Positions 1 through 6,181 are shown, counted from the stretch's first letter. The stretch: 6,181 bases of DNA from a virus (IMGVR_UViG_2541047172_000022), one strand, 5' to 3'. Notes: generated from the letters alone by a model not told the origin. Translations and numbers: made by a program.

Positions 1-30
1 AAGCTTACCGGAATTGAAGCAGTTTTTACG

Positions 31-585
31 TCAAAAAGCAATAACTTTTTTCTCTATACCAAAAGCCATAACCATTGGTTTGTACAAAATAAATTCTGCC
101 ACCTTTAGCCAATGCTCAATGCGTCTTTCACAGGTTCTTAAACTCCATTCCGGATGTGCATCATTCAGCAGTTCAGCCATTTTGCGCTTAGTCATCCCCC
201 GCCCCACATAACGCTGACTCAGAACATTGAGCAGCCCGGGATAACCTGCCAGTACTTCACCAATAACCCTGTCGATTATTAACGCCTCTGAATCGGTACA
301 ATGCACCAGCCAGCTTTTTTGCTTGCCGTTGATCATATCCCGCAAAAAAGCCTCAAGTTTAGGTTTGTCCAGACCTGCTTTTTTCATCCTCCGGAGCGCC
401 TCGTTAATTGCCGTTTTTGTCAGCTTTTTAGAGGTCAGCAACTGGTTGAACATATTTCCCGTCTTACCGCCGCCAATATACGACCAGCGCCCCCACATAC
501 GTAGTTTCCCCTGAATCCAGACACTTTCCAGCGTGGTGAGACGAAGGTGCTCTCCGCTTTTTCCTGTGTTCGTTGGGTAAATCAT
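31..585 (-). CDS. Lambdoid prophage protein of unknown function, 184 aa, downstream of the nin-type genes (possibly a late-gene regulator; not lambda-Q-like)
   Basis: Frame is open from 705, but the ATG at 585..583 overlaps the stop of the upstream gene (ATGA at 585..582) and has an AGGA-like Shine-Dalgarno about 9 nt upstream, whereas the ATG at 705 has none and would overlap the upstream gene by 124 nt. G+C resembles the adjacent phage genes. No Cys-rich zinc-finger pattern typical of lambda Q. Function is a guess from position. Confidence 0.6.
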   Translation of the reverse strand: MIYPTNTGKSGEHLRLTTLESVWIQGKLRMWGRWSYIGGGKTGNMFNQLLTSKKLTKTAINEALRRMKKAGLDKPKLEAFLRDMINGKQKSWLVHCTDSEALIIDRVIGEVLAGYPGLLNVLSQRYVGRGMTKRKMAELLNDAHPEWSLRTCERRIEHWLKVAEFILYKPMVMAFGIEKKVIAF

Positions 586-872
586 AAATAACCGTCCTTT
601 CTCCAGATCTCTTGTGTGCGAAAAACACCTTCTGCATGCATCAGGCGCAATTCTTCTTTGGTGTAATCGCTGGTTTTTACTCTCCCGTCGATTAAATCGT
701 GGCATGAGTTACAGGCAATCGCTGCCTGCATATCGTGTGGCTTTATCGCTGTTCCGCACGTTCCCGCCAGCCTGTAATGCGCCAGCACAGAGGTTTCGGG
801 ATTGTGATTGCAGTAGCCAGGGATTCTGATCTGGCATATCTGGCCTTTAGCCGCTTTACGTAAATTCACCAT
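582..872 (-). CDS. DUF1364-family putative zinc-binding protein, YbcO-like (lambdoid prophage nin region), 96 aa
   Basis: 96-aa ORF with the pattern LRKAAKG..CQIRIPGYCNHNPETSVLAH.RL.G.CGT..KP.D...AIACNSCHD.IDGR, matching what I recall of E. coli DLP12 YbcO / DUF1364 (same length, same four-Cys arrangement). Start ATG 872..870 overlaps the upstream stop (TAATG). Confidence 0.85.
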   Translation of the reverse strand: MVNLRKAAKGQICQIRIPGYCNHNPETSVLAHYRLAGTCGTAIKPHDMQAAIACNSCHDLIDGRVKTSDYTKEELRLMHAEGVFRTQEIWRKDGYL

Positions 873-1471
873 TACGCAAACTCCAGTAGTTGTGCGGCCA
901 CATTTTCAACTTCCTCCTGAGAGGAGAATTTACGGAACAGAATCCAGTTCCACAGCACATTCAGTACAGATTTATAAACCTGCTGAAACTCGACTTCGTC
1001 CATATTCGCAAAAGCGATGGATTTTGCCCGACGCCCACGGCTACCGTCCGGATAAATATGCTCGGTGTAAAATCCGGCCTGAATGGTTACCCACTCGCGG
1101 AAAGCCTCAAACGACTTTAGCAACGCCGTATCCCGGGTTCTACGAGTCGCAACGGTGTTAAGGTATTGCTCTGCGGCATCACTCAGGGCTGGCGTGTGTT
1201 CCCGACCAACTGATTCGCACAGGTAATCAACGAAACCAGACAGCAGTTCTCGTTCGCGAGGCGTGATCGCCCCACCGACCGGAGTCCAGTAATCGAATCC
1301 CAGTTGCAGGAGTTTGAAAAAACGCTTGTGGAATGCGTAGTTACGCACACGCTTAAAATCTGCGTGTATCCACTCACCTATTTTGATTTGATGCAGAAAA
1401 TCGCAACTCTCCGGCGTCGCCGGGAGAAGTAAACCAGAAGAAGTTTGTTTGACCAGTTGTATATGCGCCAT
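872..1471 (-). CDS. Lambdoid prophage nin-region protein, DUF1367-like, 199 aa
   Basis: Uninterrupted 199-aa ORF, co-directional with and coupled to the YbcO-like gene (stop TAA 874..872 overlaps its ATG). Balanced G+C like the phage backbone. DUF1367 assignment is from remembered co-occurrence with DUF1364 in prophages, not from a search. Confidence 0.7.
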   Translation of the reverse strand: MAHIQLVKQTSSGLLLPATPESCDFLHQIKIGEWIHADFKRVRNYAFHKRFFKLLQLGFDYWTPVGGAITPRERELLSGFVDYLCESVGREHTPALSDAAEQYLNTVATRRTRDTALLKSFEAFREWVTIQAGFYTEHIYPDGSRGRRAKSIAFANMDEVEFQQVYKSVLNVLWNWILFRKFSSQEEVENVAAQLLEFA

Positions 1472-1890
1472 TTCTCAATCTCTCGATGGCGCAGTGCAGC
1501 AGATGCCAGTTGTTCAAGCTAGCACGCAAATTGTAAACCAGAATGCCAGGAAAAAACAAAACCCGCCGAAGCTGGTTGTGTGCGGTTGCGTTGAAGTCTC
1601 CTAGCCAAAGAGTAGCGGTGACCACTCCCCGCCGATAATCTTAGTTGTTTAATTTCGTAAGCTAACTAGGCTAAAAGCTCTCTGTTGTCTGCCTGTTGTA
1701 CAATTAACAAAATGAACAACGAACTAGATATACCAACGCCAGAATGGTGCAACAAATCCCAAACAACACAGCAATGCAACAATAACATATGTTATTTTCC
1801 TCTCACGGGATTCAGTCCTGAATTCTCATAAAGCTAATCTTTTTTTAAAAACATACTGTTAGATCACATGCACTTTCTTTCTTAACATCG

Positions 1891-1918
1891 TTGACTTCGC
1901 ATGCGAAGCGTTTAAAAT
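1891..1918 (+). promoter_or_regulatory. Putative sigma70 promoter of the ATPase operon (-35 TTGACT 1891..1896, 16-bp spacer, -10 TAAAAT 1913..1918)
   Basis: Near-consensus hexamers at near-optimal spacing, about 50 nt upstream of the ATG at 1971; a purine-rich AGAGAG lies about 8 nt before that ATG as a weak Shine-Dalgarno. Confidence 0.55.
1895..1908. promoter_or_regulatory. Perfect 14-bp palindrome CTTCGCATGCGAAG in the promoter spacer; putative operator
   Basis: Read directly: 1895..1908 is its own reverse complement, overlapping the last 2 nt of the -35 and filling most of the spacer. Confidence 0.45.
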
Positions 1919-1970
1919 CAACAATTTGCACTTAAGGTATTTATTTTCCCAAACACATAGAGAGTAAATT

Positions 1971-3362
1971 ATGACTGAGAACACGACTCCAACAGCAGAC
2001 TTTAGTCCTAGTAAAAGATTTTTTGTAAGTATGCTAACTCGAGATATCGACTTAAACGATGCCATACTTGATCTGCTTGATAACTGCGTCGATGGGGCTT
2101 TACGTACAATAAAAGACACAAAAAAAACTTCAAAACCATATGAAGGATTTTATGCGAAACTTACGATTAATAAAGATGTCTTTATTATAGAAGACAATTG
2201 CGGAGGTATCCCTAAAAGCTTCCGAGAATATGCTTTTAAAATGGGACGACCCCATCAAAAAGAAGAAGAAAATGAAGGCACCGTTGGCGTCTATGGTATT
2301 GGTATGAAAAGAGCCATTTTTAAAATGGGTAGAGATTGCTCAATACAATCGAATAATCCCGATGGCGCATTCACTGTAGATATAACACCTGATTGGATCG
2401 ATGGTGATGGTTGGAAAATACCGATGCACGAGAGTGACTATGATAACAAAAATCCAACAGGCACAACTATAGAGATAAAAAAACTCCATTCTAATGTGGC
2501 ACAAAAATTTAATGAGAGCACATATCTTACTGATCTCTTTTTACAGATAAAACACTCATTGTCATTTATTATTCAAAAAGGATTTAAAATAGAATTAAAT
2601 GGAGTTGTTGTTGAACATAATCCGATTAACATCATAACTGATCATTCTAAAATAGAACCATACATATATAAAGCTAAAATAGACGATGTTGATATCGATT
2701 TAGTTGTTGGCTTCTATAAAAATTTAGAAGATGACAATGATGATGTTTTAGAAAAAAGGAGTTCTGATGATGCTGGATGGACTGTCATTTGCAATGACCG
2801 CGTTGTTCTATATTGTGATAAGACACATCTCACAGGTTGGGGCTTTGCTAATGTACCAAGGTTTCATACCCAATTTATAGCAATTTCTGGGGTTGTTCGC
2901 TTTACCAGTAAAAACCCAGAAAAATTACCAATAACAACAACGAAACGAGGTGTCGATCTTAGTTCTACATTGTACAATGATGTACGAAATAAAATGATTG
3001 AAGGGATGATGCATTTTATTCGATTCACCAATCAGTGGAAAGGTGAGCATCTTGAAGAAGGGAAAAAATTACTTAAGTCAGCTCAGTCACATGAAGCTCA
3101 ATCTTTATTTGAAATTACCCCACAATCAACTCCAGAAGATAAAAAAAATAACTGGTCCAACCCTAATAGAAACAAAAATGAGTGGCGATATACACCTAAG
3201 CTGCCTACCCCAGTAAAAAAAAGCTCTACTGTACGAATAATCTTCACCAGAGAGAAAGAAGATGTTAAAATTTTATCTAAATATTTCTTTGGACATGAAG
3301 ATGCTAGCGCTTCTGATGTGGGGATGCAATGCTTTGATACGGTGATTGAAGAGGTGAAGTGA
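1971..3362 (+). CDS. GHKL (Bergerat-fold) ATPase, MORC/MutL-like, 463 aa; candidate motor of a restriction or defence module
   Basis: All four Bergerat motifs in canonical order in the N-terminal 170 aa: N-box DLLDNCVDGA (nt 2070..2099), G1 box IEDNCGGI (nt 2190..2213), G2 box GTVGVYGIGMKRAIFKMG with the G-x-G-x-K...G pattern I associate with MORC-type ATPases (nt 2277..2330), and motif IV PTGTTIEI (nt 2457..2471). The C-terminal ~290 aa has no motif I can assign. Long clean ORF. Confidence 0.85.
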   Translation: MTENTTPTADFSPSKRFFVSMLTRDIDLNDAILDLLDNCVDGALRTIKDTKKTSKPYEGFYAKLTINKDVFIIEDNCGGIPKSFREYAFKMGRPHQKEEENEGTVGVYGIGMKRAIFKMGRDCSIQSNNPDGAFTVDITPDWIDGDGWKIPMHESDYDNKNPTGTTIEIKKLHSNVAQKFNESTYLTDLFLQIKHSLSFIIQKGFKIELNGVVVEHNPINIITDHSKIEPYIYKAKIDDVDIDLVVGFYKNLEDDNDDVLEKRSSDDAGWTVICNDRVVLYCDKTHLTGWGFANVPRFHTQFIAISGVVRFTSKNPEKLPITTTKRGVDLSSTLYNDVRNKMIEGMMHFIRFTNQWKGEHLEEGKKLLKSAQSHEAQSLFEITPQSTPEDKKNNWSNPNRNKNEWRYTPKLPTPVKKSSTVRIIFTREKEDVKILSKYFFGHEDASASDVGMQCFDTVIEEVK

Positions 3363-4351
3363 TGTCTGGACAATACATTCCCTATCACTTAAGGCATAAT
3401 AAGTCTATTGATAGAGAGATTTTTCTCGAAAGCCTAAACCTCTTAAGCAAAAGACTAAATATTCAAGAATATACATATATAGGTTTTGGTGGTCCGATGC
3501 TTGAAGATTTTAGAATCATGCATAATCGTATCGCTCTTTCTGATATGATTTCTCTCGAAGAACAAGAGTCTACTCACATCAGACAAAAATATAATTTGCC
3601 TTATAATTGTATTGATTGTAAGCTAATATCAGCTCATGACTTTATTCTTGATTATAGTTTTTCTAAACCATCAATAACATGGTTAGACTATGCCTCCCCG
3701 AAAAAAATACAAACGGATCTAGATGATATACACTTACTAAGTACTAAAGTAAGCTCTTTTGATATTTTGAAGGTCACCTTCCCCATAAATCCTAGTTCTT
3801 ATTACCAACGTAGAGTTGGAGAAAGTTTAGATATTTTTAAAGAAGCTTTTATTAATTCATTAAAATCATTGCTTGGGAAAAAGTATCTTGATTTTAATCT
3901 TCAGATATCAAATGCAGATCTTTCAGATCGTAAGATTAAAGCTCTTTTAATACGAATTATTACAAACGCTTTTAGATCAGCAATAGAACGTGGTCTTTCA
4001 GGACGTAAGGATAAGATTCAGTATTACCCATTATCCTTAAATCAATATAATGATGGCAGTCATACCATGTTGACAATATCAGGTTTTTTCTCCTCAGAAC
4101 AAGAATATATAGAGTTATCTAAGGCATGCGACCTTTCTAACTGGCAATTTTATTCAACAAATTGGGAAGACGTGCAAGAAATAGCAATACCAACACTAAC
4201 AATTAAAGAAAAGATAAATTTAGATAGTAAACTGCCTGATAAAGAAGCATATCAGGCAGCCGCTGAAGAGTTCTCTTTAAACGAAAATGAACGGGATAAC
4301 TATTATAAATACTATAGGTTATACCCTAACTTCCAAAGAATTATGGTTTAA
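3362..4351 (+). CDS. Uncharacterised partner protein of the GHKL ATPase, 329 aa from the ATG at 3362; candidate effector or specificity subunit
   Basis: The ATG at 3362 overlaps the ATPase stop (TGATG, 3360..3364) and has GAGGTG 5 nt upstream; the in-frame GTG at 3359 is too close to that SD. Same AT-rich composition as the ATPase. No PD-(D/E)xK, HNH, PLD, Walker or methyltransferase motif could be confidently identified by eye; there is a CxxC pair (YNCIDCK) and a glycine-rich IGFGGP segment. Confidence 0.8.
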   Translation: MSGQYIPYHLRHNKSIDREIFLESLNLLSKRLNIQEYTYIGFGGPMLEDFRIMHNRIALSDMISLEEQESTHIRQKYNLPYNCIDCKLISAHDFILDYSFSKPSITWLDYASPKKIQTDLDDIHLLSTKVSSFDILKVTFPINPSSYYQRRVGESLDIFKEAFINSLKSLLGKKYLDFNLQISNADLSDRKIKALLIRIITNAFRSAIERGLSGRKDKIQYYPLSLNQYNDGSHTMLTISGFFSSEQEYIELSKACDLSNWQFYSTNWEDVQEIAIPTLTIKEKINLDSKLPDKEAYQAAAEEFSLNENERDNYYKYYRLYPNFQRIMV

Positions 4352-5470
4352 ATATTCGGGCTGTACTCTTTTATTTAATAAATTGTACAGCCCCTTTAAT
4401 ATATATTCAGCAACTATTGGTGACACGCTATTTCCTATTTGTCTGAAACTATGCCATTTAGTTACATGAAAGCGAAACCAATCAGGGAAGCCTTGTAATC
4501 TAGCAGCTTCTCTTGGTGTAATCACTCTTGGATGATAAGGGTGGATCGGCCTGACGGCTTGAAAGCTTCCTTTATCTCTAGCGGTTCCCGCCCTTAAAGT
4601 CGGGCAAAAACCATTTGGATCTAATCTTGTAGATCTTGAAATTTTATCAGTTTCCCCAAAAGATAAGGAAGCATAACGCTCTTGGACGATTTTGCTATGT
4701 AATGTTCCGGTACATCCAGATATGATATTATTTTTTAACTTAGCGATCGATTCTGTATCACCAACATTCCGAGGGATCTGCCCCCATAATTTTTCATAAA
4801 ATCCCCCTTTTCGATCTTTTTTAATTGTTCGCCAACTCTCAGAGTCTGATTGCCAATTGGCATCGATAATATCTGGTAATCCATACAAAGCATCTTTTAC
4901 AGTAACCGGATCAATCATTTTAGGCATAAATACTTCATCTGAAATATCAAGCTTCAATGATTTTTTTACACCGATAAAAAAATATCTAGTTCGAATAGTT
5001 GGAGCACCATAATCAGATGCTTTTACCTTGATGGGATCAAGAATATCATAATCACCGCTAACCAAATTAAATGCTTTATTTCTAATGCCAGAATATTTCT
5101 CTTGCATAATACCTGGAACATTTTCTGCCAAAAAGAATAATGGCTGTAATTCTGATACTAAACGGTAGAAATGCATGTAAAGCTGATTCCTGCTATCATC
5201 AGGATTCCCCTTGCCTATTGAACTAAATCCTTGGCACGGAGGACCGCCAATAATACCATCTATGGGCATATCGTTTTTAAAAAAACCCTTAATTATTTCT
5301 GCATTTAGTAAAGAAACATCTTCTTGGACGTGCAAACTTCTTGGAAAATTAATTGCGTGAGTATTAATAGCATGTTGATCAATTTCAACTGCCATTTTAA
5401 CATCAAATCCAGCACGTGCAGCACCAAGACTTAGACCTCCAACGCCAGAAAACAAATCTATTACATTCAT
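4319..5470 (-). CDS. DNA cytosine-C5 methyltransferase, 383 aa
   Basis: Canonical C5-MTase motifs in order: I DLFSGVGG (FxGxGG, nt 5435..5458), IV GGPPCQGFS with catalytic Cys79 (codon 5234..5236), VI FLAENVPG (ENV), VIII PTIRTRYFFIG, IX/X RVITPREAARLQGFPDWF and QIGNSVSP. A variable region between VIII and IX is consistent with a target-recognition domain. Confidence 0.92.
   Translation of the reverse strand: MNVIDLFSGVGGLSLGAARAGFDVKMAVEIDQHAINTHAINFPRSLHVQEDVSLLNAEIIKGFFKNDMPIDGIIGGPPCQGFSSIGKGNPDDSRNQLYMHFYRLVSELQPLFFLAENVPGIMQEKYSGIRNKAFNLVSGDYDILDPIKVKASDYGAPTIRTRYFFIGVKKSLKLDISDEVFMPKMIDPVTVKDALYGLPDIIDANWQSDSESWRTIKKDRKGGFYEKLWGQIPRNVGDTESIAKLKNNIISGCTGTLHSKIVQERYASLSFGETDKISRSTRLDPNGFCPTLRAGTARDKGSFQAVRPIHPYHPRVITPREAARLQGFPDWFRFHVTKWHSFRQIGNSVSPIVAEYILKGLYNLLNKRVQPEYLNHNSLEVRV
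4357..4394 (+). terminator. Hairpin downstream of the ATPase-operon stop (9-bp stem GGGCTGTAC / GTACAGCCC, 18-nt loop, then CTTTAAT); weak candidate terminator
   Basis: Perfect 9-bp inverted repeat at 4358..4366 and 4385..4393, starting 6 nt after the partner-gene stop. It lies inside the 3' coding region of the convergent methyltransferase. The large loop and short T-run make it a weak intrinsic terminator. Confidence 0.25.
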
Positions 5471-5502
5471 ATAGTTGCAACGTCTCTTATTAGTTTCTAT
5501 GT

Positions 5503-5532
5503 ATTATAACACAACTGTTCTTGATGTTTTAA
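5503..5532 (-). promoter_or_regulatory. Putative methyltransferase promoter with extended -10 (TGtTATAAT) and weak -35 (TTAAAA, 18-bp spacer)
   Basis: On the minus strand a perfect TATAAT (complement of 5503..5508) is preceded by TGT (5509..5511), with TTAAAA at 5527..5532. It sits about 30 nt upstream of the ATG at 5470. Confidence 0.5.
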
Positions 5533-5732
5533 CCCCATAAGATAACCTCATAAAGGCTATCCCTTGAAAATACCGGATCGCATAAATTTAATCTTTCAAA
5601 ACTACTTGTCTATTAATCGAGCAATTTAAGGTTGTTTTAGTCATGTCGATACCGACATAGTTAACTAAACCCATTTCATCGTCCAACAAATGGGGGTAAT
5701 ACACTTTGATTTATAGTCGGGTGGGTTTTTCT

Positions 5733-5767
5733 CTATCTGCCTTTGGTGTTCATGCCCAAGGCAGATA
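5733..5767. repeat. Imperfect inverted repeat (CTATCTGCCTTTGG ... CCAAGGCAGATAG) at the right edge of the island
   Basis: Arms of about 13 bp with one bulged T, around a 9-nt loop, immediately after GGGTGGGTTTTT. No U-run follows the stem on either transcript, so it is not a canonical intrinsic terminator. Confidence 0.4.
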
Positions 5768-5821
5768 GCCTCAAGCACCCGCAGCAATTCTACTTAACTA
5801 TCCTTTTCCCGCAAATCGTTT

Positions 5822-5905
5822 TTATCCCCAGCGGCAAATCGAATACACAACCAGCGCCACCGCCATCGCAATTCCTACCGTTGTGAATGCTTCAGGCCAG
5901 GTCAT
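5822..5905 (-). CDS. Possible small hydrophobic protein, 27 aa (MTWPEAFTTVGIAMAVALVVYSICRWG)
   Basis: Its ATG (5905..5903) overlaps the stop of the 63-aa ORF (ATGA) and is preceded by GGAGGTG about 6 nt upstream. The product has a hydrophobic core typical of small membrane peptides. It was translated by hand and is below the ORF-track size cutoff. Confidence 0.3.
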   Translation of the reverse strand: MTWPEAFTTVGIAMAVALVVYSICRWG

Positions 5906-6093
5906 TGATTCACCTCCTGCGGCGGTTCTGGTAGCGACATCCAGTGGGTTGCTTGCCTAAGATCATTACCCGGACTAACTGCTATACCTCCGCGCCGGAA
6001 CGTGCCTCCGAGATAGCGTGCGGAATATATTAATGGCCCAGCCTCGCTATCGATATTCATCGAAATAAGCACGTTCTGGCTCTTTTCAGGCAT
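5902..6093 (-). CDS. Hypothetical prophage protein, 63 aa
   Basis: ORF with phage-like G+C, co-directional with the other phage genes, starting 4 nt after the stop of the partial upstream ORF. No family recognised. Confidence 0.5.
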   Translation of the reverse strand: MPEKSQNVLISMNIDSEAGPLIYSARYLGGTFRRGGIAVSPGNDLRQATHWMSLPEPPQEVNQ

Positions 6094-6097
6094 TCGC

Positions 6098-6181
6098 TCA
6101 GTACAGCTTATCCAGCCATCCAGAGTTATCGGAGATCTGGTTGACGTTTCCGAGATTTCCCGAAAATTGTTGGTTGACGAA
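6098..6181 (-). CDS. 3' end of a prophage gene running off the window (C-terminal 27 aa ...FVNQQFSGNLGNVNQISDNSGWLDKLY, stop at 6098..6100)
   Basis: Open frame from the window edge, hand-translated, ending in TGA 4 nt upstream of the next ATG. Identity unknown. Confidence 0.45.
   Translation of the reverse strand, partial: FVNQQFSGNLGNVNQISDNSGWLDKLY

Follow-up and report, generated by a model that had tools for sequence, protein, structure and literature searches.

Which function joins a MORC-like GHKL ATPase, a translationally coupled partner protein and a DNA cytosine-C5 methyltransferase that lie side by side on the viral DNA IMGVR_UViG_2541047172_000022 (6,181 nucleotides; this whole stretch is called the window below)? 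An initial annotation of this DNA had proposed that the three genes form an undescribed defence module, in which the methyltransferase marks self DNA and the ATPase and its partner act as an ATP-dependent restriction or abortive-infection component. On balance, the cassette is probably a methylation-linked immunity module similar to restriction-modification (R-M) systems, with a nuclease-free effector arm that depends on ATP and S-adenosylmethionine (SAM). The analysis established the gene anatomy, the protein folds, the conservation of the motifs, the linkage and mobility of the genes and the defence-type contexts in which they occur. A methylation-linked GHKL/MORC theme was known already; this cassette is set apart by an effector partner with a methyltransferase fold and by its lack of a nuclease.

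The three proteins of the cassette

All three genes were recovered by a survey of open reading frames (ORFs), and the ATPase, its coupled partner and the complete, convergent C5 methyltransferase with its 33-bp overlap lay exactly where the initial annotation had placed them (Table 1). The first protein belongs to the GHKL superfamily, as indicated by its match to PF13589 and by motifs I-IV. The residues D34-LLD-N38, D75-NCGG, G106-VYGIG and G164-T165 were invariant across 24 homologues, and all ATP-binding motifs as well as the N-terminal strap were conserved. In GHKL motif I, an Asp (D34) was present in 24/24 homologues at the position that is occupied by the catalytic Glu in MutL, Hsp90, GyrB and MORC. 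The top structural matches of the ATPase model were MORC3 (best), SMCHD1 and MORC2, and MORC and SMCHD1 were clearly nearer to it than MutL. The protein has the features that define MORC/paraMORC-type modules, a GHKL domain followed by an S5-fold transducer whose conserved Lys extends to the ATP site and a structure closer to MORC than to kinases, and a profile search against the PDB chains returned MORC3/4 only (E 0.03-0.24). The family is large, with more than 5430 matches at ~45% identity.

A second ATPase paralogue (570-690 amino acids where complete) was found in ten loci, where it always adjoins the C5 methylase and gives rise to a four-gene subtype (L006 8067-9830, L008 9246-10964, L010 8105-9922, L081, L082, L085, L087, L088, L092 and L093 of our locus collection). 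It matches PF13589 and phrog_20521 over the N-terminal ~400 residues, and its C-terminal part gave a match to phrog_1305 ('DNA binding protein') and a weak one to DUF4145.

The partner had been described as a protein of unrecognisable family with 330 amino acids. Both statements have to be corrected. It matches PF20553 (Methyltransf_35, "putative O-methyltransferase") from end to end, with 300.4 bits (cut-off 27) and model positions 1-308 of 309, and its RefSeq name is 'O-methyltransferase'. A Pfam scan at E <= 10 revealed no second family in the partner, and the distant homologues tested likewise matched PF20553 only. The start codon is almost certainly ATG 3362 rather than GTG 3359, which gives 329 amino acids: ATG 3362 forms a TGATG stop/start overlap with the ATPase gene, has a GAGGTG Shine-Dalgarno sequence 5-10 nucleotides upstream and fits the RefSeq annotation, and all homologues start with MSG.

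According to its structural model, the partner adopts the Rossmann-like seven-strand fold of class-I SAM-dependent methyltransferases. The positions of motifs I, II and IV are conserved, with a Gly-rich motif I, an acidic residue where strand 2 ends and the motif IV residue where strand 4 ends. Among 149 representatives (median identity 32%), the SAM site was conserved at G44 (95%), D50 (96%), E67 (95%) and D110 (100%), with D110 followed by Tyr or Phe at position 111, and R12, K15, R19, R75, N79, Y230, D232 and E284 formed a near-invariant polar constellation. Since both the SAM site and this constellation are kept, the pattern would fit an active enzyme and not a degenerate scaffold. The family comprises at least 2214 clusters (50% identity) at E <= 1e-3 and 1193 at E <= 1e-30, and the best 150 relatives were all stand-alone proteins of ~330 amino acids.

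With respect to the substrate of this enzyme, the best structural matches were RsmD, Trm1, TrmN/Trm14, RlmJ and METTL16, which methylate nucleic-acid bases and have a motif IV of the form D/N-x-x-aromatic, and every strong structural match was an RNA methyltransferase. A profile search against all PDB chains gave nothing at E <= 10, and Foldseek of the model against BFVD retrieved generic class-I methyltransferases only, with TM-scores <= 0.55 on either normalisation. The D110-Y111 pair loosely resembles motif IV of amino-methyltransferases. In our reading of the alignment, K15, D110, Lys or Arg 138 and E284 loosely resemble the K-D-K-E tetrad of RrmJ-type 2'-O-methyltransferases, and the segment 'ILKVTF' is similar to the RrmJ motif round the second lysine. 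Together with the label O-methyltransferase in Pfam and RefSeq and with the RNA methyltransferases among the structural matches, these RrmJ-like features would suit an abortive-infection or toxin module. In such a module the ATPase would sense foreign or unmethylated DNA or a phage protein and activate the PF20553 enzyme, which would arrest growth by methylating RNA (ribosomal or transfer RNA), at the ribose 2'-O or elsewhere, or a protein, and the methylase would set the sensing threshold. We consider this explanation unlikely.

The third protein is a DNA cytosine-C5 methyltransferase. Its match spans the whole PF00145 model, TIGR00675 is matched as well, and its translation contains the motifs DLFSGVGG (FxGxG), GGPPCQGFS (PCQ), ENVPG (ENV) and GNSVSP (GNSV). 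This protein and the solved chain PDB 3G7U are essentially identical (E 1e-254); the next-closest solved enzyme, M.HaeIII, aligned over the catalytic N-terminal half only (200 residues). A hypermodification derived from 5-methylcytosine by a TET/kinase route was rejected, as no oxygenase or transferase is present.

Linkage, mobility and genomic contexts

The neighbourhood of the ATPase-partner pair was compared in 83 informative loci, which were pooled from several collections and not de-replicated between them. A C5 methylase lay within ~3 kb of the pair in 75 loci, and the pair occurred in cyanobacteria, Proteobacteria and Verrucomicrobia, in lambdoid and filamentous prophages and on plasmids. 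In 17 species genomes (cyanobacteria, gamma- and alpha-proteobacteria, Verrucomicrobia and Bacteriovoracaceae), the ATPase was located directly upstream of the partner without exception, and 14 of them had an adjacent methylase in several positions and orientations. All 16 non-identical viral or prophage contigs carried the ATPase upstream of the partner as well as a methylase; the convergent overlapping layout of the window was found in 15 of these contigs and also in L007, L012 and L016, and several of the viral loci occupy the same DUF1367-flanked slot as the window. Eight look-ups of divergent ATPases showed the ATPase upstream in each case and a methylase in seven, in Dcm-ATPase-partner operons with gaps of ~11 bp, the exception being cyanobacterial. 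The ATPase was upstream in nearly all of 60 metagenome contigs, 34 of which had a methylase; four well-flanked pairs were without one, and a single partner was without an ATPase. Protein-level BLAST revealed the pair and a methylase in each of three further cases, a Pseudomonas Pf inovirus, a Microvirga plasmid and a Sinorhizobium megaplasmid.

The partner without an ATPase (L095 7771-8796), the only such case, also has no methylase and is preceded by a 141-amino-acid ORF (no Pfam match) and a Kelch-repeat protein. A decayed copy is present on pSymA of Sinorhizobium meliloti (L060, NZ_CP021824.1), where a ~3-kb insertion, probably an insertion sequence, lies between the ATPase and the truncated partner, and Dcm and Vsr follow ~3 kb downstream.

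In nearly all ATPase-partner loci, the ATPase stop codon and the partner start codon overlap or abut. The methylase gene was found upstream in the same operon, upstream and divergent, downstream and convergent, or downstream and co-directional. As the arrangements differ among loci, they indicate selection for linkage and not the shared descent of one layout. The linked methylases have a mean pairwise identity of 45%, and their divergence tracks that of the ATPases (Mantel r 0.47, p 2e-4); they belong to one co-travelling lineage or subfamily and are no random assortment. The convergent orientation of the window genes, which do not form one operon, might be taken to mean that an orphan prophage methylase has come to lie beside two unrelated cargo genes by coincidence. 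However, linkage in about 75 of the 83 loci across phyla, many of them single operons with 11-bp gaps, effectively refutes this explanation, which we regard as extremely improbable. Many phyla and several gene orders are represented, the adjacency goes well past what chance would give, and the self-contained mobile unit that had been proposed for the window is thus borne out.

Within E. coli, the cassette was present in 173 of 5426 complete genomes; all copies were chromosomal and >= 99% identical, and 172 were complete. The methylase was never found alone in these genomes; a methylase commonly occurring by itself with the same flanks was an outcome that the initial annotation had named as contradicting it. 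The sole incomplete copy is that of O157:H7 F6294 (L051, NZ_CP038372.1 2822524-2824283), in which the ATPase is intact, while both the methylase and the partner's distal two thirds were lost through one deletion.

Several of the loci lie within or beside known defence genes. On the Microvirga terrae plasmid pR24_2 (L059, NZ_CP102847.1, record 88744-106496), the pair is flanked by DrmMI and DrmA within a DISARM operon that is complete and of class 1; its gene order is Dcm-Vsr-DrmD-DrmMI-ATPase-partner-DrmA-DrmB-DrmC, and the genes are co-directional and overlapping. In one case each, the pair was found within a type I R-M locus, with GmrSD on one side and two type II R-M systems on the other, and next to a McrB_N/NOV_C protein. 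Mobile contexts included an integrase, a TrwC relaxase, a TniQ transposon gene and prophage moron slots. The genomic contexts of the cassette are those of defence cargo. In the filamentous Pf inovirus PfAC20 of Pseudomonas (L057, PP058144.1 280-3711), ATPase, partner and Dcm are oriented in one direction at the accessory end; this phage has a second short gene annotated as cytosine methyltransferase (5438-6082).

A gene for Vsr is adjacent in 20 loci, which argues that the methylase acts on DNA. The same association would be expected if the cassette were an accessory of 5-methylcytosine housekeeping without immune function, in which a MutL-like ATPase aids very-short-patch repair by Vsr, on the model of the stimulation of Vsr by MutL in E. 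coli, and so keeps the mutational burden of a newly gained methylase low. Vsr is missing, however, from the window and from each of the 16 non-identical viral loci, and the pair also occurs with neither a methylase nor Vsr nearby. Moreover, the repair explanation leaves no role for the invariant SAM-enzyme partner, does not account for the DISARM and R-M islands, and sits poorly with an ATPase structurally closer to MORC and SMCHD1 than to MutL. We therefore judge it very unlikely.

The prophage setting of the cassette

The window derives from the lambdoid prophage Sp10/CP-933R of E. coli O157:H7. Its positions 1-5905 are 100% identical to prophage Sp10 of strain Sakai and to the matching prophage of strain EDL933, where the counterpart was named CP933-R region (PMC3210124). 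The cassette is part of an insertion of ~4.3 kb between the DUF1367 gene and the next phage genes, in Sp10 between ECs_1956 (DUF1367) and ECs_1951; the cassette genes are ECs1953-1955, with ECs1953 as the methylase. As the initial annotation had noted, its composition is distinct, with a guanine-plus-cytosine (GC) content of 0.30-0.40 inside the cassette versus 0.45-0.52 in the flanks; for the insertion with its three genes, the GC content was 31-37%. Rac-like phages match the window at ~126-1520 and ~5797-5905 as adjoining pieces with nothing between them. Since these phages carry the same flanks joined without the cassette, we classify it as a moron-type cargo insertion. A repeat search of the window revealed no direct or inverted repeats flanking the insertion that would mark the insertion mechanism. 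The island contains no small ORF resembling a controller protein and no further ORF with a family match besides the three cassette genes, and an Rfam scan of the window gave no match.

Table 1. Positions of the cassette genes, their candidate control elements and the neighbouring phage genes in the window.
Feature	Positions	Strand	Evidence
MORC-like GHKL ATPase, 463 amino acids	1971-3362	+	PF13589 HATPase_c_3, E 2.9e-9
PF20553 partner, 329 amino acids	3362-4351	+	PF20553 Methyltransf_35, E 2e-89
C5 methyltransferase, 383 amino acids, complete	4319-5470	-	PF00145, E 2.6e-61
33-bp overlap of the convergent 3' ends of partner and methylase	4319..4351		ORF coordinates
Sigma-70-like promoter candidate upstream of the ATPase-partner operon	1891-1918	+	TTGACT/16/TAAAAT, 10/12 positions
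Sigma-70-like promoter candidate upstream of the methylase	5532-5503	-	TTAAAA/18/TATAAT with TG extension, 10/12 positions
Hairpin straight after the partner stop codon, within the methylase gene's 3' end; might be a terminator	4358..4393	+	Inverted repeat I22, GGGCTGTAC...GTACAGCCC
Low-GC insertion (moron) in the nin region of the lambdoid prophage	1520..5797		GC content and comparison with Rac-like flanks
Q-like DUF1133 protein, phage nin region	31-585/705	-	Pfam
YbcO/DUF1364, phage nin region	582-872	-	Pfam
DUF1367, phage nin region	872-1471	-	Pfam

The module had been credited with promoters of its own. Both promoter-like sites bounding the cassette exist, and from their sequence they are plausible candidates. 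However, 20 such sites were counted in the region compared to 17.2 +/- 3.9 in shuffled sequence, and as this frequency is not above that of the shuffles, promoter-like sites provide no evidence of promoters on their own. The methylase runs in the same direction as the phage early and nin genes, so that read-through into it from phage promoters is possible. The hairpin behind the partner gene has no clear T-run and would be a possible terminator of the plus-strand operon.

Some observations concern the flanks. The mechanical ORF of the Q-like DUF1133 protein (31-705) encodes 224 amino acids and overlaps the YbcO gene by ~120 bases, and the RefSeq product (31-585) has 184 amino acids. A hairpin with 14-bp arms (5733-5768; 93% complementary, 8-nucleotide loop) belongs to no Rfam family at the gathering threshold, and its region can be aligned to segments of the hok/sok type in 933W-like and Rac-like phages. 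The identity to Sakai and EDL933 ends abruptly at position 5905, and the remaining 276 bases (5906-6181) match Stx1a-converting phages with 82% identity only, which marks position 5905 as a mosaic breakpoint. A hydrophobic ORF of 27 codons (5822-5905, minus strand) ends at this breakpoint and is followed by an ORF of 63 amino acids (5902-6093, minus strand).

Relation to known systems and probable function

A comparative-genomic study of 2008 placed MORC/paraMORC ATPases in R-M neighbourhoods and connected them with Dcm and Vsr (Iyer, Abhiman & Aravind; PMC2292703). The cassette is similar to the systems of that study in having a GHKL plus S5 module linked to cytosine methylases and Vsr and in being sporadic and laterally mobile. 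It differs from them in its partner: theirs are superfamily II helicases or nucleases of the restriction-fold, HNH or TIR type, and no mention of a partner with a SAM-methyltransferase fold was found in that paper. The ATPase is also distinct from paraMORC2, since the ExxxH motif described there is not conserved in its family; the window protein has E344-GMM-H348, but the His column varies across the 24 homologues. In a later computational study, Response_reg_2 (PF19192) was described with HEF_HK (PF19191) as a 'two-component-like' pair that has links to C5 methylases and Vsr (Bellieny-Rabelo et al., 2021; PMC8011034). Each pair tightly joins an HATPase_c_3 GHKL protein to a small partner with a Rossmann-like fold, and each shows a strong association with genes for type II R-M, for Vsr and for C5 methylases. 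The partner is a receiver-like domain in their case and a SAM-methyltransferase-fold enzyme in ours, and the window proteins matched neither PF19191 nor PF19192 in a Pfam scan (E <= 0.01).

Like DISARM, the cassette is based on methylation and has an effector other than a classical restriction endonuclease, and the window methylase matches the DrmMII and DruM models. DrmA, DrmB and DrmC are all missing from the window, where the phage genes enclose nothing but the three cassette genes; a scan of the 60 metagenome loci with the Drm proteins of Microvirga detected no Drm protein either. Embedding of the pair in a DISARM operon was seen on one plasmid only. Owing to the lack of Drm proteins in the window and the metagenome loci, we regard the pair as a module in its own right that is open to combination with DISARM.

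With type II R-M systems that contain a C5 methylase, the cassette shares a complete methylase, mobility, low GC content, a frequent association with Vsr and the apparent co-loss of the methylase and part of the partner arm. Unlike in these systems, the arm opposite the methylase consists of an ATPase and a second methyltransferase-fold protein and includes no restriction endonuclease: no nuclease family (Pfam, NCBIfam, PADLOC) and no nuclease fold was detected in the ATPase and partner models. None of the three proteins has a nuclease domain, so that the ATP-dependent restriction suggested by the initial annotation, if taken in its classical meaning, is unsupported.

The use of a GHKL ATPase in defence has precedents. 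The Mza system, said to have been described by Gao et al. in 2020, reportedly contains a MutL-like GHKL ATPase, MzaB, and was experimentally validated as a defence system. A PADLOC v2 scan of 24 ATPase and 17 partner homologues yielded only three matches, all weak, to MzaB (3/24 ATPase homologues, best E 5.7e-4). Experimental validation was also obtained for VcSduA, a GHKL-Shedu protein of the paraMORC3 type (PMC12137116). WonAB was considered as a relative and rejected, since it consists of an ABC ATPase and a PD-(D/E)xK nuclease (PMC12137116).

In NCBIfam we found nothing useful for the ATPase-partner pair, and PHROGs lists both proteins under 'unknown function' (phrog_20521 and phrog_19983). 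As to the term undescribed, the general theme had been published in 2008 and 2021 (PMC2292703, PMC8011034), so that the claim stands for the pair only: the literature search found no description of the ATPase-PF20553 combination, a very recent naming being possible. DefensePredictor, a defence survey based on protein language models and the YprA/ARMADA preprint likewise contain no mention of a GHKL-methyltransferase-fold pair; the only related term in DefensePredictor is a figure-legend 'HATPase' for a predicted, unvalidated HATPase+REC system.

For the immunity module that we favour, the following mechanism can be envisaged. The C5 methyltransferase would mark resident DNA with 5-methylcytosine at its own motif, and Vsr, the frequent companion, would mend the T:G mismatches that arise from this mark. 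The ATPase and the PF20553 enzyme, produced from one translationally coupled operon, would constitute the effector arm. ATP-driven dimerisation of the GHKL plus S5 module might clamp unmarked DNA, as MORC and MutL clamp DNA, and the PF20553 protein might inspect the site, act on the invader through a SAM-dependent chemical step, or do both. Because the cassette contains no canonical nuclease, interference would occur by blocking, by marking or by hand-over to host nucleases, as in BREX or DISARM. Complex formation, the self/non-self logic, DNA as the target and any protection are inferences. This reading is further favoured by a report that growth phase regulates the ECs1954 and ECs1955 transcripts in the lysogen (PMC2241611).

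Several points weigh against an immune function. No recognisable nuclease was found in any of the three proteins by family scans or in the structural models, and the literature search retrieved no measured protection, restriction or toxicity for the cassette. The profile and structure checks named by the initial annotation assigned the methylase to PF00145, the ATPase to PF13589 and the partner to PF20553, whereas PADLOC-DB v2.0.0 had no match for the window ATPase or partner. Because an invariant Asp occupies the position of the catalytic Glu, the ATPase may hydrolyse ATP slowly or only bind it. Seven loci contain the pair and no methylase of any type nearby, namely the cyanobacterial loci L003, L005 (identical to L069) and L021/L022 and the metagenomic loci L074, L084, L089 and L096; they imply that the pair does not necessarily become lethal when a linked methylase is missing, unless an unlinked one takes over. 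Finally, removal of three other systems alone sensitised EDL933 to most BASEL phages (PMC13463889), so that the cassette is not a dominant barrier to those phages at native expression.

With regard to the origin of the methylase-less loci, CHAT-TPR or MoxR-type AAA neighbours in two of the four metagenomic ones hint at a possible cyanobacterial source. The methylase-less pairs of Scytonema and Kastovskya adjoin genes of the NDH/Mrp antiporter type (Proton_antipo).

Part of the same evidence would fit a module for modification, epigenetic control or phage anti-restriction, which has no restriction arm and in which both methyltransferase-fold proteins modify DNA. The ATPase would load or drive the PF20553 enzyme, which would add a second mark, e.g., on or near the 5-methylcytosine site, in order to shield phage or host DNA from other restriction systems, to lower the deamination of 5-methylcytosine or to regulate genes. 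Such a role would agree with the missing nuclease, with the similarity of the partner to nucleic-acid base methyltransferases, its Tyr or Phe behind D110 and its intact SAM site, and with the orientation of the methylase along the phage early genes. Temperate phages, which carry the cassette, often possess self-protecting methylases, and both the tolerance of the pair for a missing linked methylase in seven loci and the lack of an obvious dominant protection in EDL933 point in the same direction. However, a dedicated and tightly coupled MORC-like ATPase is not normally needed for simple modification, the embedding of the pair in DISARM and R-M/GmrSD islands is typical of interference modules, and the lone natural deletion of the methylase also truncated the partner. 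We consider a purely modifying role rather unlikely.

A bolder version of the immunity reading, which we put forward as speculative and rather doubtful, is that the MORC-like clamp itself reads cytosine methylation and, together with the SAM enzyme, silences, traps or marks unmethylated invaders without a nuclease. If true, the cassette would correspond in prokaryotes to the eukaryotic axis of MORC proteins and DNA-methylation silencing, of which it might be an ancestor, and would provide DISARM-type systems with a plug-in methylation sensor. The family is large and phylogenetically broad, and it is present in a tractable, medically important strain with a solved methylase structure (PDB 3G7U). 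Should the cassette prove protective, it would represent a type of defence whose effector is a MORC-like ATPase with a methyltransferase-fold enzyme and no nuclease. It would then bear on the discrimination of methylated and unmethylated DNA by BREX- and DISARM-like systems, and the long-standing proposal that eukaryotic MORC proteins descend from bacterial R-M components would become directly testable. If it is not protective, cytosine methylation would still have in the pair a strongly conserved companion that depends on ATP and SAM and calls for an explanation.

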